A stretch of 64,000 nt of DNA, taken from NCBI GenBank assembly GCA_965198365.1, contig OZ240617.1:10102-74101 (forward strand), read 5' to 3'. The notes below the pieces were generated by a model. That model saw nothing but the letters and a program-made list of their open reading frames with translations. It did no database searches and was not told the origin of the DNA. Below, one piece after another: positions 2,048 through 16,739 of this stretch. Made by a program: the position numbers and the translations under genes. The stretch is from Candidatus Aldehydirespiratoraceae bacterium. GTDB lineage: Bacteria > Actinomycetota > Acidimicrobiia > Acidimicrobiales > Aldehydirespiratoraceae. The first letter of the stretch is position 1, and the number at the start of each line of letters is the position of its first letter.

Positions 2048-3034
2048 ATGGACACCGCTTGCGCTTCCTCCCCCGAGCGGACTTCTTCTGGGAGGACCGC
2101 TTGGAACCTCCTCGTCGAGGCCAGGTGGCCGGATGGGGTGGAATGCCCGAGGTGCGGGACCGGTGACCCGGTGTTTCGGTCGGGGCGCTCAGCGTGGAGG
2201 TGTCATTGTTGCCGCTACGACTTCACGGTCACAACCAGAACGGCCATGCACAGGTCGAGAGTCGATGTCGCCAAGTGGGTGCAAGCGGCCTGGCTCTCTG
2301 ATTTCCGCCCTGCGGTGCTGGCACGCGAACTCGATGTGTCCGCTCCTGCCGCCCGGCGCATCGCCGCTGCATTGGAGATGACAAGACAGCCACCCGGAGA
2401 GGGCCGCTTGAAGGCGCTGATGCATCAGCCCAACGATCCCGCAGAGGCAATTCGGAGCCGCCTGCCCTGCACGTTCGACCCCGATGCCGGCCATGTCGTT
2501 GGCCTGAGCAGAGGCCAGCGGGCTGTGATGGGAATCCTGAGGAGCAGGATCAGGGGCACAACGCTCAGCCAAGTGGCCACCGAAGCCCTCCTGTCCGAAG
2601 ACCACGCGCGGCGATGCTTGAACGCCCTTGCCGAAAAGGGCTTCGCACGGCGAGAACACGGCAGCGTGCCCTGGGGCTACGGTTCGCGCAAGACCGTCCT
2701 GTGGTCGCTCGAGCTCAGCGAAGAGTGCGTGACGGCGTTGGCCTACCTGCCGCCGCGGCCCCGACAGGAGAACGACACCTGCGGTGAGCGGGTGCCGCCT
2801 GAGTTCTGGAGCCTGTTCTGGAACGGGGCGAGCGCCAAGGACCTGAGGCTCCCCGACAACGCCTTCTTCGTGGCCACCACCCTGCTGGACGGCCCTGACC
2901 CGGTGGCGCGCACTTGGGCGCTGAGATGCCTCCCCCTCGACGCTCTGCGAAGATGCCGGGACATGCGCGGCTATGACACGGGAGAGATCGCAGCCAGCAT
3001 CGACAAGGCCATCGCCCGGCGCGCCGATGGCTGA
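2048..3034 (+). CDS. Fusion of IS1595-type Zn-ribbon/HTH + winged HTH + DUF6922-like domain; putative antitoxin/regulator
   Basis: RWPDGVECPRC..WRCHCCRYDFTVTTRTAMHRSRVDVAKW..LARELDVS matches the IS1595 transposase N-terminus; no DDE domain; central wHTH; C-terminal VPPEFWSLFW..DL..FFVATTLL resembles DUF6922; overlaps the AbiEii gene. Confidence 0.65.
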   Translation: MDTACASSPERTSSGRTAWNLLVEARWPDGVECPRCGTGDPVFRSGRSAWRCHCCRYDFTVTTRTAMHRSRVDVAKWVQAAWLSDFRPAVLARELDVSAPAARRIAAALEMTRQPPGEGRLKALMHQPNDPAEAIRSRLPCTFDPDAGHVVGLSRGQRAVMGILRSRIRGTTLSQVATEALLSEDHARRCLNALAEKGFARREHGSVPWGYGSRKTVLWSLELSEECVTALAYLPPRPRQENDTCGERVPPEFWSLFWNGASAKDLRLPDNAFFVATTLLDGPDPVARTWALRCLPLDALRRCRDMRGYDTGEIAASIDKAIARRADG

Positions 3035-3839
3035 GATCGACGCATGGACCGATGTGCTCTCAGCTGAGATGCGCTCAGTGTGGCCCATCCTGTCGAGGGT
3101 CACCGATCCGCTCGAAGGCTGCCTGATGGGCGGCACCGCGCTGACGATCCATCTGCGCCACCGTGTGTCCTTCGACCTCGACTACATGACGGCCGACGGC
3201 TTCTCCGGCGACGACCTCGCCAGGAAGTTCGAGAAGGCCGCTGGCAGTGTCGACATCTACGAAAGCGGCGCCGACCAACTGCACGCCAGAGTCGACGCCG
3301 TGCAAGTACAGGTGTTCAAGGCCCCACACCGGGGGGCCAACCCCGGCCACGTCAAAACCCTCGCCCAGCCCACTCAGATAGACGGGTTGCCCGTCGCCTC
3401 CCTGGCAGACCTGCTCGCCTCCAAACTCGACGTGGTCATGTACCGGCCGAAACTACGGGACTACATCGACTTGGTGGCCATAGACAGGGCCGGGCCCTAC
3501 ACCCTCGAAGACGGGCTGCGGTTCCACATGCACCGCTACGGCATCACCCCCGCATCCACTGACGCCTCCCACATAATCAGCCTGCTCGAAAGCCCTGGAG
3601 ACCTCGACCACGATCCCCACTTCGCAGATCGCAAAGACGAAGTTCTCCAATACCTCGCAGATCGCGCACCCGACCTCGAACAGTTCTTACACCAGATGCG
3701 AGTGGACCACCGCGGCCCGACCAACCCGGAGCCTCCCGACAGGAGAAGCCCCGCGGGCCTCAAATCAGACTTCGACGAGACCCTCGGGTTCCTGTCGGCA
3801 GGGGACCCCGGCTCGCTCAGACGACCCTTCGATGAGTAA
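3027..3839 (+). CDS. AbiEii/AbiGii-family nucleotidyltransferase toxin
   Basis: LMGGTALTIHLRHRVSFDLDY, LASKL and RDYIDL motifs; ATG at 3027 overlaps the upstream stop by 8 nt. Confidence 0.85.
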   Translation: MAEIDAWTDVLSAEMRSVWPILSRVTDPLEGCLMGGTALTIHLRHRVSFDLDYMTADGFSGDDLARKFEKAAGSVDIYESGADQLHARVDAVQVQVFKAPHRGANPGHVKTLAQPTQIDGLPVASLADLLASKLDVVMYRPKLRDYIDLVAIDRAGPYTLEDGLRFHMHRYGITPASTDASHIISLLESPGDLDHDPHFADRKDEVLQYLADRAPDLEQFLHQMRVDHRGPTNPEPPDRRSPAGLKSDFDETLGFLSAGDPGSLRRPFDE

Positions 3840-3877
3840 GACCGGGGTGGACCGTCCTGCTTCGTCTTGACTGGTCG

Positions 3878-3938
3878 ACAATCCCGCGAACAGTAAAGCA
3901 ACAATATCGCGATTGAAATGGCCACAATATCGCGATTG
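3878..3938. repeat. Three 23-bp-period direct repeats (ACAATATCGCGATTG core) upstream of the AAA/DUF4143 gene
   Basis: acaatcccgcgaacag at 3878; exact acaatatcgcgattg at 3901 and 3924. Confidence 0.75.
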
Positions 3939-3968
3939 GAGGACCTATGATGGGTCCTGGGAGGTCGC

Positions 3969-5249
3969 TTGGTGGCTGATCGGCTAACACCATCCGGGTA
4001 TATGCCAAGGGTGGCAGATCGTGAGGTGGAGAGCGCCTTGCGCGCCTCGCCGGCGGTCGTTGTCGAGGGGCCGCGGGCGTGCGGCAAGACATGGACTGGT
4101 CGGAATCATTCCCGCAGCGAAGTGCCCTTTGACGCCGTCTTCGAGAACCGGCTGGCCGCGCAGGTTTCCCCGATGGAAGTCCTTGAGGGGTCCGTGCCGC
4201 GCCTGTTGGACGAGTGGCAGCTCGCTCCCGGCGTGTGGGATGCCATGCGGCGGGCTTGCGATGATCGGGGGCAGAAGGGCCAGTTCATCTTGACCGGGTC
4301 GGCCGATCCTCCTGACGATGCCACCCGCCACACTGGCACCGGCCGGATCATCCGGGTGCGGATGCGCCCGATGAGTTTGTTTGAGAGCGGGGAATCGAGC
4401 GGGGAGGTCTCCCTGCGCGGCTTGCTCGCCTCGCAGCGCAGTTCTGCCCCGCCCTCCGCTCTCGGCCTCCCCGACATCGTGGACTTGGCCTGCCGGGGCG
4501 GTTGGCCTGGCATGTTGGGCGACTCACCCGCAGTGGCGCAGAGACAGCTTCGCGCCTATCTCGACGAGACCAGCCGGACCGACGTCTCCCGGGTCGACGG
4601 CACTGCCCGCGATCCGGTGGGAGTGCGCCGTTTGCTGGCCTCTTTGGGCCGGAACACCTCTACAGAGGCGACGCTCAAGACACTCGGCCAGGATGTGGCC
4701 GGGGGCGGCGAGACCCTGCATCCCCGAACCGTCAAGAGCTACCTGGACGCACTGAGTCGCTTGTTCGTGGTGGAGGAGTTAGCGGTGTGGAGGCCGCATC
4801 TGCGGTCTCGAGCCCAGCTTCGCCGCACCCCCAAGCGCTACTTCACCGACCCGGCGCTGGCCGTGGCCGCGCTGCGGGCCAACGCCGACCAGCTGATGGG
4901 GGACCTGAGCTATTTCGGCCTCCTGTTCGAGTCGATGGTGCTGCGCGATCTGCGCGTCTATACCCAAGCCAATGACTGGGACGTTTCGTACTATCGGGAC
5001 AGCTCCGGACTTGAGATAGACGTGATTCTCACAAGCTTGGACGACCGGGAGTGGGCTGCGGCCGAGGTGAAGCTCGGCGGAACCGAGTTGATCGAAGAGG
5101 GCGTAGCGTCGCTACGACGGTTGCGCGACCGGGTTGACACCGCACAGATGGGCGAGCCGCGCAAACTCATGGTCATCACTGCGGGCGGCCGCGGCTTCGA
5201 GTACCCGGAAGGAATCTCAGTCGTCCCCATCACCGCCCTGGGACCGTGA
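3969..5249 (+). CDS. AAA_14 ATPase with DUF4143 domain
   Basis: GPRACGKT Walker A, LLDEWQ, FILTGS, PKRYFTDP, FESMV, YYRDSSGLEID..AAEVK; start may be ATG 4002. Confidence 0.9.
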   Translation: MVADRLTPSGYMPRVADREVESALRASPAVVVEGPRACGKTWTGRNHSRSEVPFDAVFENRLAAQVSPMEVLEGSVPRLLDEWQLAPGVWDAMRRACDDRGQKGQFILTGSADPPDDATRHTGTGRIIRVRMRPMSLFESGESSGEVSLRGLLASQRSSAPPSALGLPDIVDLACRGGWPGMLGDSPAVAQRQLRAYLDETSRTDVSRVDGTARDPVGVRRLLASLGRNTSTEATLKTLGQDVAGGGETLHPRTVKSYLDALSRLFVVEELAVWRPHLRSRAQLRRTPKRYFTDPALAVAALRANADQLMGDLSYFGLLFESMVLRDLRVYTQANDWDVSYYRDSSGLEIDVILTSLDDREWAAAEVKLGGTELIEEGVASLRRLRDRVDTAQMGEPRKLMVITAGGRGFEYPEGISVVPITALGP

Positions 5250-5260
5250 TCAGAGGCCGC

Positions 5261-5608
5261 TCAGGGCCAGTGGACGCCGGGATACGGGTTCGGGTTGGCG
5301 ACGGACCATTCGTGCAGGTGGCGTGCCAGGGCGGGACCCAACGCCGAGCCGCGAAGGTGCTGGCGCTTCTGGACGAAGACGACGGGCACGCACGGCGCGC
5401 CCGCGGCTAGACGGTCTTTCGTAATGGTGGCGAAGTCCGCAAAGTTCTCTGTCACGATGACGTAATCCTGCTCGACGGCGGTCTCGTAGAGGGCGTCGTC
5501 ATCGCTGCCGGCAAGCCCAGCCTCGGCGACACTGAACGCCTCATGTCCGAGCGCGGCCAGCCCCGCCGCGGTGGCAGGCGGCAGCATCTCGTCGATCAGC
5601 CACCTCAA
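5261..5608 (-). CDS. DUF5615/VapC45-like PIN-domain toxin
   Basis: MRWLIDEMLP..GHEA..SDD..VIVTENFADF pattern; overlaps the upstream antitoxin by 4 nt. Confidence 0.85.
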   Translation of the reverse strand: MRWLIDEMLPPATAAGLAALGHEAFSVAEAGLAGSDDDALYETAVEQDYVIVTENFADFATITKDRLAAGAPCVPVVFVQKRQHLRGSALGPALARHLHEWSVANPNPYPGVHWP

Positions 5609-6027
5609 GACGACAGCAACTGCTCGCGCCGACGAATCTGGCGGCGGACCTCCTCGGCAGCACGCTCATCCGCTCGGATCAACTCATCGATCTCCTCAGG
5701 GAACGACGCATAGAAATCCGCCGCCAACAGCACCGACTCTGCGGTAAGGCCAGTCTCGGCGACAAGGTTCTCGACGCGATCCATCCCCCGACCCGGCGCG
5801 GACGCGAGATCTCGCACCACCTCCCACACGTCCGGGCCGCCCACAACCGCAGCGCGTCGGCCCCCCACTCCGCCGCGGTAGACGACACCGGCAAAGCGGC
5901 GCGTCTTCAGACCCTCGTCGAGCAGGGAGGAAACCAGTTGCGTGATCGAGGCGCCGACATCGCGACTCTCGGCCTCGATGCGCTCCAGTAGTTCCTCAGG
6001 AAGACGGAACGATGTAGGTCGTGGCAC
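5605..6027 (-). CDS. RHH + DUF433-like antitoxin
   Basis: TSFRLPEELLERI ribbon-helix-helix; GRRAAVVGGPDVWEVV..FYASFPEEID. Confidence 0.8.
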   Translation of the reverse strand: MPRPTSFRLPEELLERIEAESRDVGASITQLVSSLLDEGLKTRRFAGVVYRGGVGGRRAAVVGGPDVWEVVRDLASAPGRGMDRVENLVAETGLTAESVLLAADFYASFPEEIDELIRADERAAEEVRRQIRRREQLLSS

Positions 6028-6100
6028 AGTACACCTCGTAGCTTGCTCGCGCTACAGAGTACTACACCACGGAAGAAACACAACCGAAGCCGACCGTGAG

Positions 6101-7018
6101 CTAGGGGAAGTGGAGTTTGAGGCCGGGGCGGGGCCAGTCGATTTCGACTAGTTGACCGGTGCCGGACAACGTGCAGAAGGCACGCGGCTCGTCGTCGACA
6201 AAACAAATGTTGGTTACCAGCACATCCGGCAGCGCAACGTGTTCGACAGTTGAACCATCGGGAGAGATCGCGGTGATCCCACCGTTGCCGATCGTGGCGA
6301 CACAGACCCACCCCTCGCCGTCAACCGCCAACGAATCAAACAACTGGGCTCCCGGCGCGCCATGAAGCAGTTCGCCTCCTGTCGAACCCAACAAGTCCGT
6401 CGTGTCGACCATCCCCGGTGCGGTCACATCCCAAACCCGAACCCGACCCGTGTGGGTCTCCGCGGCATAGAGCCGGGAACCGTCGGGCGACAACCCGATG
6501 CCGTTGGGGGCGTCGAGTGGATGAACTCGCTCAACACACGAGGAACCGTCGATCGTGGCGTAGTGCAAACCCGTTCGGTCGCTCGTGCGCTCGAACCGAA
6601 CCCCGTGATCCGTGAACCAGAAGCCCCCGAACTCGTCGAAGACCAGGTCGTTGGGCGCACGAAGCGGGCCGCTGCTGCTCTCGGTGTAGACGGTCTCGAC
6701 CTCGCCCGTGACAGGATCGACTCGCTGGATCGACCCGCCAGACCAATTGGTCGGCACTTCTCCTGGGATCAGCAGGCCCATGACTTCTTTGAACTGAAAG
6801 CAGCCACCGTTGTTGCAGACGTAGATCTTGCCGTCAGGGCCGTAGGCCGCTCCGTTGGGCCCACCACCACAATCCGCCACGACCGTCACCTCGCCATCGG
6901 GGGTGACCCGGCTCAAAGTGCCGCGGGCGATCTCGACGAGCAACACGCTTCCGTCAGCTTCCGCAATAGGCCCCTCCGGAAACTGCAGTCCGGTGGCAAC
7001 AATCCGAGGTTCGCTCAT
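6101..7018 (-). CDS. SMP-30/gluconolactonase/LRE family protein
   Basis: GLQFPEGP, GGPNG, PNDLVFD..WFTD, PNGIGLSPDG, DSLAVD, TNICF. Confidence 0.9.
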   Translation of the reverse strand: MSEPRIVATGLQFPEGPIAEADGSVLLVEIARGTLSRVTPDGEVTVVADCGGGPNGAAYGPDGKIYVCNNGGCFQFKEVMGLLIPGEVPTNWSGGSIQRVDPVTGEVETVYTESSSGPLRAPNDLVFDEFGGFWFTDHGVRFERTSDRTGLHYATIDGSSCVERVHPLDAPNGIGLSPDGSRLYAAETHTGRVRVWDVTAPGMVDTTDLLGSTGGELLHGAPGAQLFDSLAVDGEGWVCVATIGNGGITAISPDGSTVEHVALPDVLVTNICFVDDEPRAFCTLSGTGQLVEIDWPRPGLKLHFP

Positions 7019-7186
7019 TGCCGGACAGTAACCCCACCACCATTTCGCTCGCACATCGCCTCGTCACATTCTCGAATGGATGCTCGGGTCGTCAACAACA
7101 TAAAGGGGGGTCTGCATTTAACTCGCGGCGGCCGAAACTGTGGTGTGCGTGACTTCAAGATGTCCGAACGGTAGCGTGATTAGAAG

Positions 7187-8032
7187 ATGCCCGAGCTTCC
7201 AAGCTTTGAACGGCCGCCTGTCAAGGAGGTCGTGATCGCAGCGCGCTTCAAGCGCGCTAACCGCTACTCAATCCTGGCCCTCGGCGAAATAGCGCAGCAG
7301 ATGGAAGCTGCCGGCTTCTCAAAAATTGAGGAACAACCCAGCTATGAAGCGCCGGTCGAAGAGTTCGGCCCGACCAACGAACAAAGCGGCATGTCTTTAA
7401 GGCTCCTCCCGGGTCCGGCCCCGATTCGCTACTGGTTCTCAAACGACGACGGAGACGAACTTCTCCAAGTTCAGCCCAACTGGTTCGCAGCGAACTGGAA
7501 GAAAACCGCTCCTTCGGCGGAGTACAAGCGTTGGAGGCCCCGCTGGAACGATTTCCAACGTTGGTTGACGGTCGTATCCGCGGCCATTTCCGAGGGAGAA
7601 TTGGACTTCGACCAAGTGGAGGTGACTTACATCAACCACATTGAACCGGACGGTGTCTGGACTCACCACGGTGAGGCCGCCAAAGTGTTCAAGTCTCTCG
7701 CACTCGCTCAAGGTGAGTTCCTTGGGGCCCCCGAGCAATGCACTGCGAACTTGCAATATCTGATTGGCGCGGACACAGGCGAAGAAAACGCTTCAGGGCG
7801 ACTGCATGTCTCGATTAGTCCTGGGTTCAGTCGACCAGACGGCACTCCCCTCTTCGTAATGAATTTGACCGCGCGTGGAGGTCCGACCGGCAGCGGTATC
7901 GAGGGAATACAGGGTTTCGCGGAGGTGGCACACGAGTGGATCGTTCGCGGATTTACGGATCTGACAAGTGACGCGATGCACGATGCGTGGAAGAGAATAC
8001 GACAACGGGAAAGGAATCCATTAGATGAGTGA
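7187..8032 (+). CDS. TIGR04255-like protein
   Basis: LPSFERPPVKEVVI..F, RYWF..LLQVQ..FAANW, YINHI, AHEWIVRGFTDLT..MHDAW match my recollection of this family. Confidence 0.75.
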   Translation: MPELPSFERPPVKEVVIAARFKRANRYSILALGEIAQQMEAAGFSKIEEQPSYEAPVEEFGPTNEQSGMSLRLLPGPAPIRYWFSNDDGDELLQVQPNWFAANWKKTAPSAEYKRWRPRWNDFQRWLTVVSAAISEGELDFDQVEVTYINHIEPDGVWTHHGEAAKVFKSLALAQGEFLGAPEQCTANLQYLIGADTGEENASGRLHVSISPGFSRPDGTPLFVMNLTARGGPTGSGIEGIQGFAEVAHEWIVRGFTDLTSDAMHDAWKRIRQRERNPLDE

Positions 8033-8552
8033 TGTAATCGACCGGCACCGAACAACGATGAGCGATTCGGATGTGATCCATCGAGCCCTACCAGCTCAGC
8101 ATTCGTGTGGCCGGATGTCTGACGACGATTGGGTCGCCGGATCTAAGTCGATTCTCACCGATTTCTGGGAACCTACGTATGAATGGCCTCCCCAGCTGTT
8201 TACGAGCCCGAAGATGTCTGCGTTACGGCAGCTCGAACATCAATTACTGTCGGTCACCGACAACTGGGATGGATACCACGCAAAGGCACCAAACACCGAA
8301 GCGATCGCGACCACCTTGACGGTTCTGAACTCGATGCCTCCGGGTATACCTTTCCCAGATGTTTACCCAAGCACTGACGGCGGCGTAATCCTTGAGTGGG
8401 AGTCATCAGACGCCGAGGTCCTCCTAGTCGTCGAGTCCAAAAACAAGATAGAGACGACGGTAGACCTTGAGGGGTCTCGATTCGAGGGTCCGATAGAGTC
8501 GGTGATGTCGGATCTGGTTGCAGCGCTACAGAGAATCTCTTCAAGCGCTTGA
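8025..8552 (+). CDS. Hypothetical protein with NWDGY..P..P..DGGV.LEW motif; putative antitoxin
   Basis: Overlaps the upstream gene by 8 nt; motif DNWDGYHAKAP..PDVYPSTDGGVILEW. Confidence 0.6.
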   Translation: MSDVIDRHRTTMSDSDVIHRALPAQHSCGRMSDDDWVAGSKSILTDFWEPTYEWPPQLFTSPKMSALRQLEHQLLSVTDNWDGYHAKAPNTEAIATTLTVLNSMPPGIPFPDVYPSTDGGVILEWESSDAEVLLVVESKNKIETTVDLEGSRFEGPIESVMSDLVAALQRISSSA

Positions 8553-8564
8553 GCAGTACTGATT

Positions 8565-9008
8565 GTGCCGCCCGATCCCTCGTCTGTCTACGACGACGAC
8601 CCGACAATCGGCGATGACGAACTCCTATACCGGATGGTCAACCGGGGGAACACAAAATATGATCACGGCATCGCTATACGCGGCGGTACAAACGCGTTTC
8701 AAGACATTCCTCCTGACAAATTGGAACGTGTCGGAGCACCCGCTGTAGCCGTCTCGGTTTATCTCGAATCGGAACTGAGGTCCTACGGCTTGTCCGCCGA
8801 TTACCTCGTTCAAAGCTGGGGCGAACAATACGGCGTTGTCTCGATTCGCGCTCGCGACGTACGCAACGAGAATCAGGGAATCGTGCGCTGGCCGAAGCCT
8901 GATCAACCGGGCCACGCAATGATCTTTTCTTGTTCCGGTCCCAAAAAAAACGGTGGTCAGAGTAAGCGCCTCGCCAGGGCATCCGATGTAGTCATCGCAC
9001 CAGGTTAG
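8565..9008 (+). CDS. Putative ADP-ribosyltransferase-fold toxin
   Basis: DDELLYR..AF..VSVY..GVVSI..VR..P..PGHA.I arrangement resembles small ART-like toxins; start codon is GTG. Confidence 0.5.
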   Translation: MPPDPSSVYDDDPTIGDDELLYRMVNRGNTKYDHGIAIRGGTNAFQDIPPDKLERVGAPAVAVSVYLESELRSYGLSADYLVQSWGEQYGVVSIRARDVRNENQGIVRWPKPDQPGHAMIFSCSGPKKNGGQSKRLARASDVVIAPG

Positions 9009-9070
9009 AACTGCCCAGACGCGCACCACTCGGGTCCCCGTCAGGGGCCAGACCGTGCCCGGTCTGCCAC

Positions 9071-9243
9071 ATTGATGCGATCTTTATCGGACCCGCAGAC
9101 CCGTCGATCACTCTCGGCTTGCCGCCCGGCAACAAGGACGGCGAGCAAGCGGTCGATGATGCTCTCAGTTTCATCCTCGGACGCTGCGCAGCCCACAACA
9201 TCATCGCCGGTATCCAATCGACCGGTGCATTGACCTTCCGTGG
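9071..9243 (+). pseudogene. HpcH/HpaI aldolase fragment
   Basis: Translates IDAIFIGPADPSITLGLPPGNKDGEQAVDDALSFILGRCAAHNIIAGIQ (D.hhhGP.DLS motif); no start or N-terminal part. Confidence 0.7.
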
Positions 9244-9262
9244 GATAGACCTATCACCAGCT

Positions 9263-11035
9263 TCACGGGCGGGCTGCCCGGAGTAATTGACTCATCGGGC
9301 CATCGCCGGAATAGGTGACGGTCAATGTTTCGATCGCCCGCGTTATGGCAACGTAGAGCAGTCGTTGACGGGTCTCGTCTTCGTCGTCGTTTACCCAAAT
9401 GTCGTTGACGCCGCCGATGAGCACATGGGGGTATTCGAGTCCCTTCAGTAGCTGGAGGGTGGACACCCGCACTATGCCGCGCATCGACACCACTTGGTCC
9501 CGCTCCTGCTGTGCGTCGAGTGCTCGAATTTGCTCTGCTCTCAGCGTCTGTATCAAAGAGATCCGCAAGTCTTTCGATCCCGACATGATCACGATGTCGT
9601 CGGGTGTGGCCCCGTTGTGGAGGAGTTCGGCTGTTTTCCTCGTCAGAGTCTCAGCCTCGGTTCTCAGATCGCCGCACTCGAGAAGATCCGGGGCCCTACC
9701 ATTGCGCAAGGCGGCTTCGGGCATGACGAAGACGTCCAGGTCGTCTGGAGAAGCCTGGCCCGCGCTGGTCTGGGTGATCCCCGCAATCGCTCCCAGCGCG
9801 AAGTCGAGCGTCTGCTTCGTGTTGCGGTAGTTGTCTCGGAGAATGGTCGAACGACCCCGGGCGGTCACGCCCGGTGGATTCCAATTCATCCTGCGCCGGT
9901 AGACGTTCTGCGCGCTGTCCAGGGCAATGACAAAATGCCTGCGGTCTGTCGGCAATTCCTGTTTGCCCATTGCCCAGGCCAGGTCCAGCCCTGAGTTGCC
10001 AAGATCTTGGGCTTCGTCCACTAGCACCATGTCGAATTTCGCTGATGCAGGCAGAGTCTCAGTTGCCTTGATTGCTTCCTTCCGCCGGGCATCGTAAGCA
10101 GCGTCGTTGTTGCCGTCGGTTGGCGTTCCACCCGCGGCGCGAATGACCTTGCTGGCGAGGGAGTCGATGGTGGACACCGTCACGTTCTCCATGTCTTCGC
10201 ACTCTGCCTGAAGAGCCTGTGCGAGAGCTTTGTTGAAACAGGCAAGCAAAATGCGCCATCGGGGCATGTTCTCGCCGATAAAGCGGGCTCTGTGGGTCAG
10301 GACCAGGGTCTTGCCGCTTCCGGCCACGCCTCGGATGAGACGGTAGCCAGGTCCGAGGTGTTCTGCTAGGCGTTCTTGGGCCAGGTCCAGAACTCGAATC
10401 AACTCCTCAGACGTCTGGGGAGCAGTGTCGAACATCTGGCCCTGCTGACCGATCACGATGTTGGGATTGATGGCGGCTCGTACCTGTGCTCGGCTCTGGT
10501 TGTCGAGCGCGGGATTCTCCCCGCCGAGTATCTGCCGGATGGCCGCCAACAAGGTGTCTTCATCGAAATCTTCTAAGTGAAGCCGTGGCGTCGTTTCGTC
10601 GGCCAAAGGCACGGGTTGGTCGCCGCGAACATCAGGCAGCGCCAGAGCTCGAGCTACGGGCAGCGACTCGATCTTGTGCTGCAATCCGTCGACCCTGGAG
10701 ATGATGGCTCTTTGGGCCTGGTCGACGCCGACTCGCGGCTGGCGCCGGAAGCGGCTCCGCTTCTTGGCGCCGAGAGGTCGGAGCGTGGGGGACTCCAGCA
10801 CCAGGATACCCGCGGCGGGGTCGAACACGACCAAATAGGGGACCGACTCGGTGCTGGAGTTTGGAACCTCATACCCGAGATCGTTCCGTTGCGCTGCGGC
10901 GGTATCGTCACCGGTTCGCTCAAGTGACACCACGACATCTCCGGGTGTCGCGTCGCGCAGCAGCCGGGCAGAAGTTCTAAGCCTTTCGGGTATGTCGTTT
11001 CGACTGGGAATATTCTCGGGAATCAGGCTGGCCAC
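9263..11035 (-). CDS. SF1 UvrD-like helicase with degenerate NERD-like N-terminus
   Basis: GVAGSGKT, LACFNKAL, VDEAQD, QNVY, NYRN, LKGLEY, LLYVAITRA; N-terminal PYLVVFDPAAGILVLES is NERD-like but lacks the D and K. Confidence 0.85.
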   Translation of the reverse strand: MASLIPENIPSRNDIPERLRTSARLLRDATPGDVVVSLERTGDDTAAAQRNDLGYEVPNSSTESVPYLVVFDPAAGILVLESPTLRPLGAKKRSRFRRQPRVGVDQAQRAIISRVDGLQHKIESLPVARALALPDVRGDQPVPLADETTPRLHLEDFDEDTLLAAIRQILGGENPALDNQSRAQVRAAINPNIVIGQQGQMFDTAPQTSEELIRVLDLAQERLAEHLGPGYRLIRGVAGSGKTLVLTHRARFIGENMPRWRILLACFNKALAQALQAECEDMENVTVSTIDSLASKVIRAAGGTPTDGNNDAAYDARRKEAIKATETLPASAKFDMVLVDEAQDLGNSGLDLAWAMGKQELPTDRRHFVIALDSAQNVYRRRMNWNPPGVTARGRSTILRDNYRNTKQTLDFALGAIAGITQTSAGQASPDDLDVFVMPEAALRNGRAPDLLECGDLRTEAETLTRKTAELLHNGATPDDIVIMSGSKDLRISLIQTLRAEQIRALDAQQERDQVVSMRGIVRVSTLQLLKGLEYPHVLIGGVNDIWVNDDEDETRQRLLYVAITRAIETLTVTYSGDGPMSQLLRAARP

Positions 11036-11064
11036 AGCACGTCAACCTACACTTCAAGCAACTT

Positions 11065-14000
11065 TCAGTCTTGTTCGGCTATCTCCAGATACTTGTATTG
11101 GGTTCGTTCCAATTCTCCCGGCCGCTTGACTTCTCCCGGCCGCTTGACGAGGACCTCGTCTTCAACCAACTTATCGATGGCCTTCTCGACTCCTTCTCGC
11201 TTTAGAAAGGCCAATCTCCCAAAAGCATCTTGCTTGGCCAAACGCTTTGGGAGTTCGTAATTCCCGCCGCTGTGTCCGGCCAGGGTGTTGACAATGCTAT
11301 TGAACGAATAGCGCGCTCCGGCAGTACTCTCCACCAACTCCGTAATGATGGCGTTGACCGGCAATGATTCGAGGAGACCCTCTCGGGTCAGGTGGCTGTC
11401 GGCCCATGGCCTGGGAAGCTCGACGCATAGGTCGCACCGTTCACAGGATTCGGGTGCCTCTGTCCCCAAATATTCGAGCATCCCCTTTCGTCGGCATCCC
11501 TTGGAGGAACGGGCCAGATCCTTCGCTGCACTGGACTTTTCTTCTACCAAGCGCCTGCGGTCTTCGGCTGAATGTTCGATTGCCCCCCACGGGGGATCGG
11601 CGTCGAGCCGCTCCAGTACCCAGGCGTGCTTCCAAGCGGTGAAGCCCAAAATGTCCCGTTTGTTCAACTCGAACAGGTCTGCGGCAATATCCCAGGGCTT
11701 TCGGCCCAGACTCCGCTCCCAGGTTCGCGCATGGTACTCATCGCTGTCTTGCTGTTCGGCTAGAGCCAGAATGTGCCGAGCCCGCTGGGCCAGTTCGGGA
11801 TCTTCTCCTTCCAACTCTTGGACCATGCGCACGGTGTCTCCGACAACGACTATCCGCCCTTTCCAGACGGTGTCGGGATGTCGTTGCACAGCTCCATGTT
11901 CTTGGAGGTAGTGGACGGCTAGGGCAGTGCTCACCGACTCGGGGTCCCCGTCGTAACCTCTTTCCGCTAGTTCCTCCGGATCGTAGGCGTTCGTGCCCGT
12001 CTCAAGCTGTGAACAGATTCGCCGCACCTGCCCAATGACGGGAGCCGAGTTCTTGATGAACATCCGGTGGATGGAGCAATCCCTTGGCATGGTCAAAAGG
12101 ACGGCTGTACCTGTGTCCGGTCCCGTTCCTTCGGCAGCACCGCGGGCCGCCCGGCCGGTCTCCTGCACGTACTCCTCGATGGAGGCAGGCATCTCCAGGT
12201 GGACGATCAGGGCGATGTCGGGCTTGTCAATCCCCATCCCGAACGCCTTGGTGGCCACCACGACATCGATCTCACCGTGGCGAAAGGCGTCTTCGATGTG
12301 CTGGCGTTGGGGATGGTCCATCCGCCCGTGGTAGGCGAACGCGTTGTGGCCGGCCGGCCGCAGCAGGCTGGCGATTCTTGCGGCATCTCGGCGGGTGGGC
12401 ACGTAGACGATGGCCGGTTGGTGGCGAAACGCCTCCACGATCTGGACCACTCGCAAATCGCGGTCTACGCTGTTTTCGCAGCGCTCGCCGAAGTAGCGGA
12501 TCTCCGGCCGATCGGGTGACAGGGCCACCGGCTTGTCTTGTAAATCCAGATCGAGCAGATCCGCGATCTCACCTCGAACCTTTGGAGTGGCGGTAGCGGT
12601 GACGGCTAGGATCGCGGGTCCAGGGTGGCCGGCGATCCGATTTATGGCTTCGGGGATGGCCGCGTACTCCGGACGGAAGGAGTGGCCCCACTGGGAGATG
12701 CAATGAGCTTCATCGACTGCGATCCGGGCCACACCTATCTTGGACAGTTCGCCCACGAACTCCTGAGACCAGAGCCGCTCGGGGCTCACATAGAGCAGCT
12801 TGTAATGGCCGCGATGCGCTCCCCGTAGAATCTCCCGCCATTCCCCTTGGGGTATGCCGCTGTGGATGGTGGCCACCTTGGCCACACCCTTGGCGCGCAG
12901 GTTCTCGGCTTGGTCGTTCATCAGGGCCACCAAGGGGGCGATGACCAGGGTCACACCCGGAGACAGCAGGGCCGGGATCTGAAAAGTGACCGACTTGCCC
13001 GATCCGGTAGGCAGCACGGCCAACATGTCGTCGCCCCGCAGGAAACCGATCATGGTGTCTCGTTGGCCGGGACGCCACTGCTTGAACCCGAAACGCTCTC
13101 GAACCCGGTCGAGGCATTGATCGATCACAGTCTCGTTAGCGAGGTCGGCCTCGGAGAGCTCCAAGTCCGCGAGCGCGGACCACGGGTCGGCGCTGGGCAG
13201 CGCCTGGAGCCGCTGGCGCATCGGCTCGTCGAGAACCACATCGCCGAGGTGGTCGGCGATGAGCTGGTAGGCGTCTTCGGCGTTGTTGGCCCGCTCTAGT
13301 CGAGGGGGACCGGGGAGAGTGCCGAGGATCTGATCTCGATAGGGGACGGCTCGGCACAGCCGGTTGTCCAGAATCACCGTGACCCCGCGATCACGTTCAG
13401 TGCGGATCAGTCGGCCTGCGCCCTGGGCGAAGCGGATGGCAGCTTTGGGCACGATGTAGTCGGCGAACGGGTCTTTGCCGCGACGTTCCATAGGCTCTGT
13501 TCGGGCCCCAACCACAGGATCGGCGGGTGAGTCGAAAGGGATTTTCTCGATGACCAGCAGGCTCAGGGCTTCGCCGGGGATGTCGACTCCTTCCCAGAAG
13601 GAGCGCAGAGCGATCAAACTGGTGGCCAACTCCATCCGCATCCGTTCCACCAGCGCAGGCGCGGTGTCATCCCCTTGAGCCAACAGGGGGATCTGTTCGT
13701 TGTCGAGTACCGGCCGAGCATGGTCACGCACGAACTCCATCCGTGAACGAGCGGCCATGAGGACAAGCCCCCGACCGTCAGTGAGGGTGAGCAGGCGGGG
13801 AATCTCCGAGGCCGCCGACGTCTTGAACTCCTCCATCAGCCTTGGGCGGGGAGCGGGTAGATAGTCGGTGCGCAGCACCATGTGGTTCTCGGTCAGCCAG
13901 GTGAAGGGACTATCAAGGGCAAAGGTTTCAGCGCTGCCCAAACCCAGGGTGTTGAGGGTGTAGCCGAAGCTGTTTCCCACTCTTAGGGTGGCCGAGGTGA

Positions 14001-16092
14001 GCACGGTGGCGTCCAACGAATCCCACAGGGAACGCAGACCATCGGCCACTGATATAGGAGCGCGTTTCAGCTCCCATCTCCACCCGTCTTCGGTGTGGTG
14101 GATCCCGCCGATGGCGACCCACTCCTCAGGTTCGGTGGCCCACAGCACATATCCGATAGTCCTCATCGCATCTCGGGCCTGTTTCCCCAACCGGCTGATT
14201 CGGGCCTCCAAGCGGTACCGCCGAAAACCTGGAGCCAGATCCTCGGGCAGGTTTACATCGTTGAGAGCATCAGCAAGTTTGGACAAGGCGTCTTGGAGGT
14301 GGTGGCCTGCGCCCAGCACCGGTTGCTGGTAGTCGGGATGGCGGGTGTCGATGCCCTTCCTGAGCCGGTATGACACCGGGTACGCGTCTTCTTGTCCGGC
14401 ACCGGTGCGAATTCGCAAGTAATGCACGAAAACCGAACCGAAGTGGGCAGATGCCGATCGGATCTCCTCGGTCGCGCGGCGAATAGCGTCGAGCGGCTCA
14501 TCGCCGATCGGCCATCTGGCCGCTCGGGCAACGCTGACCACCTTCCCGCTGCGGCTCAAAGGATCCCAGACGGAATCGCATAGATCGGCGACATCGCTTT
14601 GGGACACAGAGGCCGAGAGCGCGTCGGTGGCGGAGTCCTCCAAGTTATGGGCCTCGTCCAGAATCAGGTGCTTGGAACAGTGCAGCCAGTCGCTCCAAGT
14701 CACCAGCAGGGCATGGTTGAGCACGGCCACATCAGCGTCTGGGAAGAGATCGCGTGCCCGTCTATAGAAGTCCCGGTGGTCGAGCTGGGACTTGGGCGGA
14801 CCGCCCGGCGCCTCGGCCACGCTAAGCAGTCGGCGGATGCGGCGCACTTCGGGAATCCTCTTCTCGATGGCGCCGGTGCGTAGGTCGTCCCAGTCGCCGG
14901 TTCTGGTTTGCGCCACCCAACCGCAGAGAATGGCGAGGACTAGGACCTCGGGATGGGTGAAGGCGGGTTGAGGCGGCGCTTCACTTGTCACCCCGGTAGT
15001 CCCGGTCGCCGAGGCCAAGATATCCAGCTCTCCGTCCAGCGAATCCAGGCTGATGTAGTTGCCCATACCCTTGAGCAGGACGTAGACGAACGGACCGAGA
15101 TCTTCTTGAAGCTCCTCCAGTGTCGTCATCACCTGGTCTTGAAGAACCTTGGAATGTGGGGCCACGACAACGGGCCGCTGGACGGCCCGGCCGTACGTGA
15201 TGGCCGGCGCCAGATAGGCCAGCGTCTTGCCTGTTCCGGTGGGAGCTTCGATCAGCCGTCGACCGCCCTTATACAGGGTGTCGGCAATGAGTTTCGCCAT
15301 CTCGGTCTGCTGTTCGCGGGGCTCTCGGTTATGGCCCATCAGTGTGCCCCCGTCATGGAACATCTCGGTGACAGCATCGGGATTGAATGGTCTTGCGGGC
15401 GGTTTTGGCTGTGGCGGCTCGGGAAGCGGTACGACATCCGCCAGAGCTGTGCGCTCAGATTGCGATGACAAGAATCTAGCCCACGGGTGATCGCCGGCTT
15501 GGAGGACCCAACGTTGGAGACGACGCATCGGGGAGTCTTCTTCCATGGCGACCAACAGCCCCAGCAAGACTCGATACAGAAGCAAAGCATCGTCGAGAGC
15601 GCGGTGAGCACCCCGGGGCTGGTCTCCGAAGAAGTGCCGGGCCAACTCGTCGAGACTGCGGCCGTTCGGCGGTGTTCCGCCGTCGATGTTAACGACAATG
15701 CCCTTTCCCGCCCGGGGGAAGACGATGTGAGCGAGTTCCAAGGTGTCGAGCCGCTGGTGATCGGGAATCTTCTCCCCAACGGCATCAAGGAGCACAAAAT
15801 CGTATCCATGCCCATTGTGAGCGATCAGTGGGCGGTTCCCGACAAAACTGCGGAACAAGCGCAACGCCTCCGCTGGTAGGGGTGCAGCATCCACCATCTC
15901 TTGTGTGATGCCGGTGAGTTCCTGTGTCTGGGGGCGCAGAGGCCGTGTGGGACGAACCAGGGTCTCGAATCGATCGGCCTCCTCGCCGTCGCGGATCAAT
16001 AGAGCACCGATCTCGATGATCTCGTGCCGTGGCGGATGGGCTTGGTCGGCGTTGGCTTCCAAGTCGAAGATCACGTACTCAGAAATCGCCAC
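11065..16092 (-). CDS. DEDDh 3'-5' exonuclease - DinG helicase - RecQ helicase fusion (1675 aa)
   Basis: Exo: FDLEA, HNGHGYD, HRALDDA. DinG: REQQ, EAPTGTGKT, DEAH, SATL, FWEGVD, QGAGRLIR. RecQ: FGF..RPGQ, PTGSGKS, DEAHCISQWGHSFRPEY, TATAT, AFGMGID, QETGRAAR, CRR..CERCDLC. Confidence 0.9.
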   Translation of the reverse strand: MAISEYVIFDLEANADQAHPPRHEIIEIGALLIRDGEEADRFETLVRPTRPLRPQTQELTGITQEMVDAAPLPAEALRLFRSFVGNRPLIAHNGHGYDFVLLDAVGEKIPDHQRLDTLELAHIVFPRAGKGIVVNIDGGTPPNGRSLDELARHFFGDQPRGAHRALDDALLLYRVLLGLLVAMEEDSPMRRLQRWVLQAGDHPWARFLSSQSERTALADVVPLPEPPQPKPPARPFNPDAVTEMFHDGGTLMGHNREPREQQTEMAKLIADTLYKGGRRLIEAPTGTGKTLAYLAPAITYGRAVQRPVVVAPHSKVLQDQVMTTLEELQEDLGPFVYVLLKGMGNYISLDSLDGELDILASATGTTGVTSEAPPQPAFTHPEVLVLAILCGWVAQTRTGDWDDLRTGAIEKRIPEVRRIRRLLSVAEAPGGPPKSQLDHRDFYRRARDLFPDADVAVLNHALLVTWSDWLHCSKHLILDEAHNLEDSATDALSASVSQSDVADLCDSVWDPLSRSGKVVSVARAARWPIGDEPLDAIRRATEEIRSASAHFGSVFVHYLRIRTGAGQEDAYPVSYRLRKGIDTRHPDYQQPVLGAGHHLQDALSKLADALNDVNLPEDLAPGFRRYRLEARISRLGKQARDAMRTIGYVLWATEPEEWVAIGGIHHTEDGWRWELKRAPISVADGLRSLWDSLDATVLTSATLRVGNSFGYTLNTLGLGSAETFALDSPFTWLTENHMVLRTDYLPAPRPRLMEEFKTSAASEIPRLLTLTDGRGLVLMAARSRMEFVRDHARPVLDNEQIPLLAQGDDTAPALVERMRMELATSLIALRSFWEGVDIPGEALSLLVIEKIPFDSPADPVVGARTEPMERRGKDPFADYIVPKAAIRFAQGAGRLIRTERDRGVTVILDNRLCRAVPYRDQILGTLPGPPRLERANNAEDAYQLIADHLGDVVLDEPMRQRLQALPSADPWSALADLELSEADLANETVIDQCLDRVRERFGFKQWRPGQRDTMIGFLRGDDMLAVLPTGSGKSVTFQIPALLSPGVTLVIAPLVALMNDQAENLRAKGVAKVATIHSGIPQGEWREILRGAHRGHYKLLYVSPERLWSQEFVGELSKIGVARIAVDEAHCISQWGHSFRPEYAAIPEAINRIAGHPGPAILAVTATATPKVRGEIADLLDLDLQDKPVALSPDRPEIRYFGERCENSVDRDLRVVQIVEAFRHQPAIVYVPTRRDAARIASLLRPAGHNAFAYHGRMDHPQRQHIEDAFRHGEIDVVVATKAFGMGIDKPDIALIVHLEMPASIEEYVQETGRAARGAAEGTGPDTGTAVLLTMPRDCSIHRMFIKNSAPVIGQVRRICSQLETGTNAYDPEELAERGYDGDPESVSTALAVHYLQEHGAVQRHPDTVWKGRIVVVGDTVRMVQELEGEDPELAQRARHILALAEQQDSDEYHARTWERSLGRKPWDIAADLFELNKRDILGFTAWKHAWVLERLDADPPWGAIEHSAEDRRRLVEEKSSAAKDLARSSKGCRRKGMLEYLGTEAPESCERCDLCVELPRPWADSHLTREGLLESLPVNAIITELVESTAGARYSFNSIVNTLAGHSGGNYELPKRLAKQDAFGRLAFLKREGVEKAIDKLVEDEVLVKRPGEVKRPGELERTQYKYLEIAEQD

Positions 16093-16166
16093 GGGGCGAG
16101 AATAGTGTTTTAATCTCGCGAGTTCCTGTCTGCGCTCACCTCCAAACGACTAAGTGGGACAGTCTT

Positions 16167-16739
16167 CTAACCCAGGGTTACACCCGCAGCGACGAGTTCG
16201 GTTAGTGCAGCGTCGGTCGTTTCGGGGGCGACACCGGCGCAGTGTTCGAGCAACACGGTGGTGTCGAAACCGGCGGCCACGGCATCGAGCGCCGTCGCTC
16301 TCACGCAATGGTCGGTCGCTAAACCGACCACATCGACAGAAGTGACTCCTCGCGCCTTGAGCCAGTCACCGAGCAGCACTGTCTCGTCTGAGGCTGCACC
16401 TCCGTCGAAACCCGTGTAGCTAGCGGTGGTCCGGCCTTTCAAGAAGACCTCGTCTACCACTATGTCCAAATCAGGGTGGAAGGCCGCACCTTCGCTGTCG
16501 GCAACGCAGTGAACCGGCCAGGTGTCGACGAAGTTCGGGCCGACTTCGGGATCGGCGAAATGTTCACCCGGATCGACATGCCAATCCTTGGTGGCCGCGA
16601 CCAACTCATAGGCGCCACCGGCACGGTCCAAACCCGCCAGCTCAGTGATTGAACGGGCCACCGATCCGCCGCCGTCCACCGCCAAAGCACCGCCTTCGCA
16701 GAAGTCGTTCTGGACATCAACAACGATCAACGCCTTCAT
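16167..16739 (-). CDS. pncA: Nicotinamidase/pyrazinamidase
   Basis: VDVQNDFCEGGAL, DWH, WPVHC, VGLATDHCV. Confidence 0.93.
   Translation of the reverse strand: MKALIVVDVQNDFCEGGALAVDGGGSVARSITELAGLDRAGGAYELVAATKDWHVDPGEHFADPEVGPNFVDTWPVHCVADSEGAAFHPDLDIVVDEVFLKGRTTASYTGFDGGAASDETVLLGDWLKARGVTSVDVVGLATDHCVRATALDAVAAGFDTTVLLEHCAGVAPETTDAALTELVAAGVTLG

Follow-up and report, generated by a model that had tools for sequence, protein, structure and literature searches.

What is a bacterial polypeptide that joins a nuclease to two different helicases for, and is it one protein at all? The question is raised by a gene on contig OZ240617.1 of a Candidatus Aldehydirespiratoraceae bacterium (Actinomycetota, Acidimicrobiia; GenBank assembly GCA_965198365.1), within a stretch of 64,000 nucleotides (nt; positions 10,102 to 74,101 of the forward strand) that we call the window. 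The gene, herein P0001, encodes an exonuclease, a DinG-type helicase and a RecQ-type helicase in one frame and is followed by a gene for a UvrD-like helicase, P0002. A first-pass annotation made from the sequence had described both genes and had proposed a single-chain bipolar helicase-nuclease that works with a third helicase, in defense against phages and plasmids or in DNA end processing. The observation is confirmed here and its interpretation partly supported.

The exonuclease-DinG-RecQ chain

The 1675-residue open reading frame (ORF) is uninterrupted and divides as follows.

11065..16092, (-), exonuclease-DinG-RecQ fusion gene P0001; 1675 amino acids (aa), GTG start, stop included
15565..16074, (-), DEDDh 3'-5' exonuclease domain, aa 7-176; Pfam RNase_T (8e-23, 82.2 bits)
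13288..15333, (-), DinG/XPD-type superfamily 2 (SF2) helicase, aa 254-935; Pfam, NCBIfam and alignments
13105..13287, (-), DinG-RecQ linker, aa 936-996; conserved, without stop or frameshift
12037..13104, (-), RecQ-type SF2 helicase core, aa 997-1352; TIGR00614 and Protein Data Bank (PDB) RecQ matches
11068..12036, (-), RecQ C-terminal region, aa 1353-1675; Pfam and alignment A1

Pfam places ResIII/DEAD_2 (aa 257-500; DEAD_2 itself below its cut-off, 18.2 versus 21 bits) and Helicase_C_2 (aa 766-925, 112.9 bits) in the DinG half, and DEAD (aa 1008-1171, 125 bits), Helicase_C (aa 1217-1317) and RecQ_Zn_bind (aa 1508-1556, 28.9 bits over a cut-off of 25) in the RecQ half. NCBIfam DinG models span aa 254-935 and RecQ models aa 997-1352. 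The sole NCBIfam model to pass its cut-off is TIGR00614 (recQ_fam, a subfamily-level model; 306.4 over 219.8 bits); equivalog cut-offs are missed both for RecQ (TIGR01389, 369.6 versus 640.2; PRK11057, 321.8 versus 1015) and for DinG (PRK08074, 378.6 versus 789; TIGR01407, 330.9 versus 547.7). RecQ chains in the PDB match the core at 6e-79 (4tmu) to 2e-76.

The motif strings and coordinates given in the first-pass annotation are all correct. The exonuclease carries FDLEA (aa 9-13), HNGHGYD (aa 92-98) and HRALDDA (aa 163-169), with D10, E12, D98, H163 and D168 as its catalytic DEDDh residues. The DinG module has Walker A GTGKT (aa 286-290, 15223-15237), DEAH (aa 479-482, 14647-14658) and motif VI (Q890/G893/R894/R897); the RecQ module has Walker A (aa 1029-1034, with GSGKS at aa 1030-1034, 12991-13005), DEAH (aa 1127-1130, 12703-12714) and the Zn-binding cysteines C1533, C1550, C1553 and C1556. 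An insert of ~155-190 aa lies ahead of the Zn-binding motif and a tail of ~120 aa follows it. Neither HRDC, which was not obvious to the first-pass annotation either, nor RQC is matched by Pfam at E<=0.01. P0001 thus resembles RecQ of E. coli (1oyw) and C. sakazakii (4tmu) in its core and has the Zn-binding cysteines; it departs from bacterial RecQ in having no HRDC or RQC, in the displacement of the Zn motif by the insert and in missing the equivalog cut-off.

Just two cysteines, C390 and C472, lie between the DinG Walker A and DEAH motifs (aa 290-479), so the DinG half is without the four-cysteine Fe-S site of E. coli-type DinG; no cysteine of this segment is invariant among 15 Acidimicrobiia homologues of P0001 (alignment A1). 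The same combination of an N-terminal DEDDh exonuclease with a DinG helicase that is short of the four Fe-S cysteines is found in ExoDinG of S. aureus and B. subtilis (PDB 8zef), which differs in its length (~900 aa) and in having no RecQ half; loss of these cysteines in Bacillales ExoDinG is described in a review of the family (PMC11981726).

That the fusion is real follows from its relatives and from an independent assembly. A large protein collection yielded at least 120 homologue clusters (50-93% identity, 1477-1873 aa). All 120 listed have DinG-type and RecQ-type helicase domains and 117 have RNase_T as well, which is not found in the other 3; the named ones are called "RecQ family ATP-dependent DNA helicase" and come from Acidimicrobiia metagenome-assembled genomes, several with sponge-associated Candidatus names. 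In A1 the five DEDDh residues, both Walker A and DEAH motifs, DinG motif VI and the four Zn cysteines are invariant, as are the linker residues Y942, I945, H948, L949, L979 and L994. A second alignment, A5, comprises nine sequences at 27-65% identity from Acidimicrobiia, Chloroflexota, another Actinomycetota lineage and Deinococcota; the catalytic residues of the exonuclease, DinG and RecQ domains are invariant across it, and the Zn cysteine C1550 is not. Judged by these motifs, all three catalytic modules are intact on one chain. The A5 consensus also has two cysteines, in a C-x-G ... C-F-Y pattern, near P0001 aa 430-445, where P0001 itself has none; some distant fusion homologues may retain an Fe-S site.

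This stretch, or part of it, recurs in public sequencing runs (24 runs listed, from nine studies), the matches being contigs and not raw reads; none of the 24 is listed as an RNA run. In a run from a different study, contigs cover 12166-16092 without a gap and with 7 substitutions; the DinG-RecQ junction, for which the first-pass annotation had proposed a check at 13100-13300, is therefore crossed intact, with no stop or frameshift. The indels seen in public-run contigs are in frame only. The contigs break at ~12140-12260, inside the conserved RecQ core, which may reflect metagenome sequence common to other organisms. In the C-terminal tail the six residues VKRPGE occur twice, owing to a perfect 18-nt tandem duplication (11113-11148); a contig of run X8 is missing 18 nt at this point, and run X3 has in-frame gaps at the same place.

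A UvrD-like partner at a variable site

P0002 lies 29 nt downstream of P0001 on the same strand, where a co-directional superfamily 1 (SF1) helicase had been noted, and has UvrD-type domains.

9263..11035, (-), UvrD-like SF1 helicase partner gene P0002; 590 aa, GTG start
10436..11035, (-), P0002 N-terminal domain, aa 1-200; predicted structure and alignment
9302..10408, (-), P0002 SF1 helicase core, aa 210-578; Pfam, alignment and Foldseek

Pfam matches UvrD-helicase (42.6, cut-off 23), UvrD_C (41.5, cut-off 25.6) and AAA_19; NCBIfam equivalog models stay far under their cut-offs. The family profile (alignment A2) matches PcrA and UvrD at ~1e-21, Walker A GSGKT (aa 239-243) and DEAQD (aa 340-344) are invariant in the family alignment, and Foldseek with the whole model returns SF1 helicases and SLFN11/14 only. 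The top PADLOC match is C3a187 "NERD+UvrD" (1.2e-46); being confined to aa 179-576, it excludes the NERD part. GajB (1.7e-14) and Nhi (2.5e-4) match more weakly. The likeness of P0002 to C3a187, Nhi and GajB lies in the helicase core, and the difference in its lack of a Pfam NERD domain and of the catalytic lysine.

The N-terminal domain had been labeled "pseudo-NERD". Pfam NERD (PF08378) finds no match in P0002 even at E<=1, and Foldseek with the domain model (predicted local distance difference test score, 69.8) gives 0 matches at E<=0.001; a language-model search (ESM Atlas) with aa 1-200 returned NERD clusters in 27 of 30 cases (score 0.93; 179-184 of 256 features), which serves as a lead only. 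The AlphaFold order of helices (H) and strands (E), H17-29, E35-40, H45-52, E66-72, E76-81, H104-121 and E127-132, is consistent with a core of the restriction-endonuclease-like type. Among the aligned family members D72 is near-invariant, E81 is variable and P83 stands in place of the catalytic lysine. The evidence is mixed: a degenerate NERD/PD-(D/E)xK-like domain is plausible at most, and the "pseudo-NERD" label is weakly supported.

To ask how regularly the two genes occur together, we used a locus scan with one genome per species, which returned 80 loci. Thirteen Acidimicrobiia loci hold a full-length or near full-length fusion homologue (38-78% identity), and each of them has the partner (35-73% identity) as the next gene downstream, in the same orientation. 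Four further loci, in Chloroflexota (2), another Actinomycetota lineage and Deinococcales, hold a triple fusion at ~31-33% identity, beside which tblastn finds no partner (0/4); the remaining 63 match the Exo-DinG part only. The pncA/pncB flank of the window is common to none of the other loci. Identities of P0001 and P0002 covary (r=0.96 over 11 loci, among which kin are not independent). Within the genus, 3 of 17 genomes have the fusion orthologue (G000; G011, at 94% identity; and G004, at 76-78% and split over contig ends), and these three have the partner too; in a sample of the class 3 of 301 genomes give a match at E<=1e-150. P0001 and P0002 are thus a conserved two-gene unit, co-inherited and co-lost, and the module is accessory and patchily distributed; the linkage that the first-pass annotation had suggested testing is strong.

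Other data on the pair are less direct. Prediction of a complex between P0001 aa 1320-1675 and P0002 (with A1 and A2) gave a score of 0.02 and a mark of 0.32, which speaks neither for nor against binding. A search among longer proteins found no single-chain orthologue of P0001 plus P0002, only 11 weak SF1 matches (26-31% identity); as evidence this negative is weak. Two of the fusion homologues are damaged: at locus L029 (4434-7631) the gene is split by an insert of ~3.2 kb with ORFs of 557 and 185 aa, neither Pfam-matched at E<=1, and at L027 (8965-8949) the homologue is without aa 719-990.

The pair is located between pncA and a gluconolactonase-like (SGL) gene (window 6101-7054, Pfam 1e-39), beside toxin-antitoxin pairs and a PADLOC candidate. 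Nine relatives were compared downstream of pncA; the pair is absent in eight and a remnant is left in one. In G009, pncA adjoins the SGL gene directly; G014 and G012 have ~1 kb from pncA to SGL, where nothing matches the pair or the small ORFs at 7187-9008; and G016 has these three small ORFs next to pncA and no helicase pair. The remnant, in G015 (L100, 7026-7860), occupies the same pncA-SGL site: fusion aa 345-414 there abut partner aa 375-590, as left by a deletion that took parts of both genes. All 17 genomes of the genus, by comparison, have pncB. The other cassettes of the site are listed below.

2048-3839, AbiEii-like toxin with a helix-turn-helix (HTH)/Zn-ribbon gene; variable among genomes
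3969-5249, PDC-S01 AAA_14/DUF4143 ATPase; PADLOC candidate, 2.6e-64
5261-6027, PIN (DUF5615) and ribbon-helix-helix (RHH) genes; toxin-antitoxin type
7187-9008, (+), three small ORFs of 281, 175 and 147 aa; lower GC (0.55-0.57), converging on the helicase pair

Genomes differ in whether they have the AbiEii/HTH, PDC-S01 and PIN/RHH cassettes and in the order of these (window 2048-9008 against loci L100-L108). The pncA-SGL interval is a variable cassette site and not a syntenic housekeeping locus, in line with the distribution of the pair in genus and class. Because the three ORFs at 7187-9008 stand beside pncA in G016 without the helicase pair, they form a separate cassette; none has a Pfam match, and the 175-aa ORF weakly matches PADLOC PDC-M32A (6e-9). 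The "broken aldolase" placed beside the pair by the first-pass annotation was not found, the ORF at 8625-9029 (-) having no Pfam match at E<=1. A 270-aa ORF at 6362-7174 (+) overlaps the SGL gene on the opposite strand and is probably not a gene. The promoter and terminator scans gave 0 sigma-70-like promoters and 1 terminator-like site, below shuffle expectation.

Distant fusions and their neighbors

A "three-domain fusion protein (DnaQ, DinG, RecQ)" of T. thermophilus HB27 was put in print by Omelchenko et al. in 2005, who report that HB8 is without it, i.e., that it is accessory (PMC1274311). The first-pass annotation knew of no characterized protein that joins DinG and RecQ; the fusion itself has been on record since that paper, and in the sources found it remains uncharacterized. 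Literature searches with hyphenated DinG-RecQ, DnaQ-DinG or Exo-DinG fusion names gave nothing, and a broader search gave PMC1274311 as the only specific report. A 2025 review sorts DinG-like proteins into ten subgroups and, supplement aside, names RecQ 0 times in its main text (PMC11981726).

The HB27 protein (TT_RS10770, plasmid pTT27, 1649 aa) is collinear with P0001 and has all the catalytic residues in common. Identity is 32% by tblastn within aa 1-1310 (two pieces, 46% of the query) and ~27% overall in A5. It differs from P0001 in being plasmid-borne and in being followed by three other conserved genes instead of a UvrD-like partner. A transposon-sequencing study of 2026 (PMC13140390) assigns the pTT27 recQ to the shell pangenome and rates it "Highly Permissive" to insertion.

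The plasmid-collection homologues listed belong to Thermus, Meiothermus/Allomeiothermus and Deinococcus, and their neighborhoods differ from that of the window. On pTT27 the triple fusion lies between cas3 and cmr genes; on an A. silvanus plasmid, cas1c/cas2 and a WYL gene are close by; on a T. aquaticus plasmid the fusion comes after a Phd/VapC pair; and on a T. oshimai plasmid it is preceded by brxL and a 594-aa UvrD-like gene that is related to the P0002 family (hhalign, E 3.7e-37). An 828-aa UvrD/PcrA-type helicase gene precedes the fusion on a Deinococcus plasmid. Elsewhere, at locus L032, a ResIII protein and a type III methyltransferase (7.7e-273) are encoded upstream of the fusion and in its direction, the gene ends overlapping or lying <=10 nt apart, and the fusion of L031 is downstream of a 2017-aa DrmMI/type IIG-like protein.

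All four Thermaceae plasmids compared (L109, L111, L112 and L113) have three further conserved genes downstream of the fusion, with which these form an operon of four. The three encode coiled-coil-like proteins of ~230-320 and 160-190 aa, then a protein of ~500-514 aa without a Pfam family, which one record annotates as "BglG". For the first and the third, BLASTP gives weak matches in the Deinococcales locus L033; none of the three matches the window ORFs at 7187-9008 by BLASTP. What appears to be new here is the conserved UvrD-like pairing, the cassette behavior and the spread across phyla with alternative partner sets.

Function of the pair

The reading we prefer, tentatively and at somewhat less than an even chance, is that P0001 and P0002 form a mobile accessory helicase-nuclease module directed against foreign or aberrant DNA, most likely in anti-phage or anti-plasmid defense. 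E. coli DinG is reported to move 5'-3', and RecQ and UvrD translocate 3'-5'; from these family polarities, the two SF2 motors of P0001 could follow opposite strands. P0001 would load where the DNA ends or where a replication intermediate branches, its DinG-type motor (5'-3') and RecQ-type motor (3'-5') would each run along one strand in a common direction, like RecB and RecD, and the DEDDh exonuclease would degrade the 3'-ended strand. P0002, with a possibly nuclease-like N-terminal domain that is without the catalytic lysine, might act as a third motor, as a sensor or loader, or as a protein-displacing factor. We infer the polarity, complex formation, substrate and defense role of the pair, and its bipolar motor action by analogy with RecBCD. 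The likeness to RecBCD, AddAB and AdnAB is one of analogy only, namely two motors of opposite family polarity with a nuclease, a combination that would permit the processing of duplex DNA ends; those enzymes place SF1 motors on separate subunits and use RecB-type nucleases, whereas P0001 has two SF2 motors and a DEDDh exonuclease on one chain, with the SF1 helicase as a separate protein. S. aureus ExoDinG, likewise short of the Fe-S cysteines, is reported to be a 3'-5' exonuclease and a 5'-3' helicase (PMC12345164).

In line with the defense context proposed by the first-pass annotation, defense-type neighbors exist in the window and beside distant homologues. PADLOC relatives of the modules include DpdF, PsyrT, typeIV_DinG, Cas-associated DEDDh and C3a187; these matches are domain-level only, and as to the other genes of the known systems (Dpd, PsyrTA, type IV CRISPR, Gabija, Nhi), the 10 neighboring window ORFs scanned with PADLOC include no Dpd, PsyrA, Csf or GajA component.

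Several observations weigh against defense by a mobile module. The 144 neighbor ORFs of the 13 Acidimicrobiia loci contain few specific defense matches (PD-Lambda-5 A and B, MTase_II, SoFic and two AriA-like proteins, which are ATPases), and most are metabolic, with luciferase-like monooxygenases (5) and ABC transporters (5) as the most frequent Pfam families, which speaks against a plain "defense island" in this clade. A search of window 1-30000 found no tRNA gene, and no repeats flank the cassette in a scan of 6900-16400. In phage and plasmid collections no homologue covers >=80% of P0001 (0 of 771 matching plasmid records). No functional study of any fusion member was found in a search that left most subscription journals outside. 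An earlier study, as related in PMC11981726, had S. aureus ExoDinG without helicase activity.

An elaborated version of the preferred reading makes the pair a Chi-independent, one-chain "RecBCD-like" destroyer of foreign DNA ends and intermediates, with an SF1 helicase that would gate or load it and carry a dead-nuclease sensor, and the founder of a new anti-phage or anti-plasmid family; the core would be reused with other partner sets, which in Thermaceae are the three downstream genes and in other lineages type III or DrmMI-like methyltransferases. Taken together, we consider these added claims doubtful.

The main rival is an account in which the pair is an accessory machine for DNA repair or replication rescue, a WRN-like exonuclease-RecQ extended by DinG and given a UvrD-type helper, acting on R-loops, G-quadruplexes, stalled forks or protein blocks in organisms without a standalone RecQ. 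All four domains come from repair helicase or nuclease families, DinG, RecQ and UvrD being classical repair and replication helicases. Human WRN likewise joins a RecQ helicase (core match ~1e-44) to a DnaQ-superfamily exonuclease; it is eukaryotic, acts in repair and telomere maintenance, has no DinG module and no SF1 partner, and the likeness is one of convergent architecture. The cooperation of E. coli DinG, Rep and UvrD where transcription and replication collide counts toward this account. So, too, does the genome of G000: the query used returned no other RecQ-type match, so the fusion could supply RecQ function there, while a separate 633-aa DinG-like gene is present. A methyladenine glycosylase, a repair enzyme, occurs in 2 of the 13 Acidimicrobiia neighborhoods. 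The pTT27 gene has been counted as Thermus recQ, among redundant helicase-nuclease pairs (PMC13140390, PMC11143384), and B. subtilis ExoDinG has been tied to replication stress (PMC12525004). A repair role fits poorly with a gene of very patchy distribution (genus, 3/17 genomes; class, 3/301) that is deleted in G015, with contexts that vary from a toxin-antitoxin and defense-type hotspot to megaplasmids beside CRISPR, BREX or restriction-modification genes, and with the missed RecQ and DinG equivalog cut-offs; we hold it to be unlikely on balance.

Service to a mobile element would make the proteins process or protect the DNA of plasmids or of integrative and conjugative elements, or counter host nucleases, with the chromosomal copies as cargo. 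The homologues in the plasmid collection, the location of all five opened plasmid loci on megaplasmids, the integrase and insertion sequence elements near the A. silvanus and T. aquaticus copies and the 3.2-kb insert in L029 would agree with it. The five opened plasmids are all typed non-mobilizable, however, the Acidimicrobiia pair is chromosomal with no tRNA gene or repeats in the intervals given above and no integrase or relaxase Pfam family reported among the window ORFs scanned, and phage records carry the DinG part at most. We regard this explanation as improbable. That P0001 is an artefact, two or three genes joined by sequencing error or a decaying pseudogene, is scarcely conceivable: no support for it was found, the decayed copies being those of other genomes (L027, L029 and G015), and the full-length homologue clusters, the conserved linker with invariant catalytic residues and the gap-free contigs all contradict it.

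No characterized protein that joins a DinG-type to a RecQ-type helicase was found, and the P0001 family adds an exonuclease that looks active by its residues. The family is conserved in at least four phyla and has been joined by further helicases repeatedly. If the motors pull opposite strands, the chain would be a one-chain solution to a task performed by the multisubunit RecBCD and AddAB; if the pair is a defense system, it would add a new helicase-nuclease type. A ready model is the homologue on the dispensable megaplasmid of the harmless and genetically tractable T. thermophilus HB27; strain HB8 has no copy of it.

The UvrD-type neighbors in T. oshimai and Deinococcus, the Acidimicrobiia partner and a RecQ-UvrD chain in G008 together suggest a recurrent association of RecQ-type with UvrD-type motors. 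Ten other genomes of the genus have long frames of 1432-1761 aa with a similar RecQ-core match, and G000 has none. The G008 protein (L097, 5355-10544) is a single chain of 1729 aa in which a RecQ-like core (aa 322-642, 35% identical to P0001) is combined with a UvrD/GajB-like helicase (aa 1112-1581), with a possible DEDD-like motif near its N terminus by weak alignment only. Its gene lies ~3.5 kb from one for an NsnB/AriA-like AAA_15/AAA_21 ATPase.

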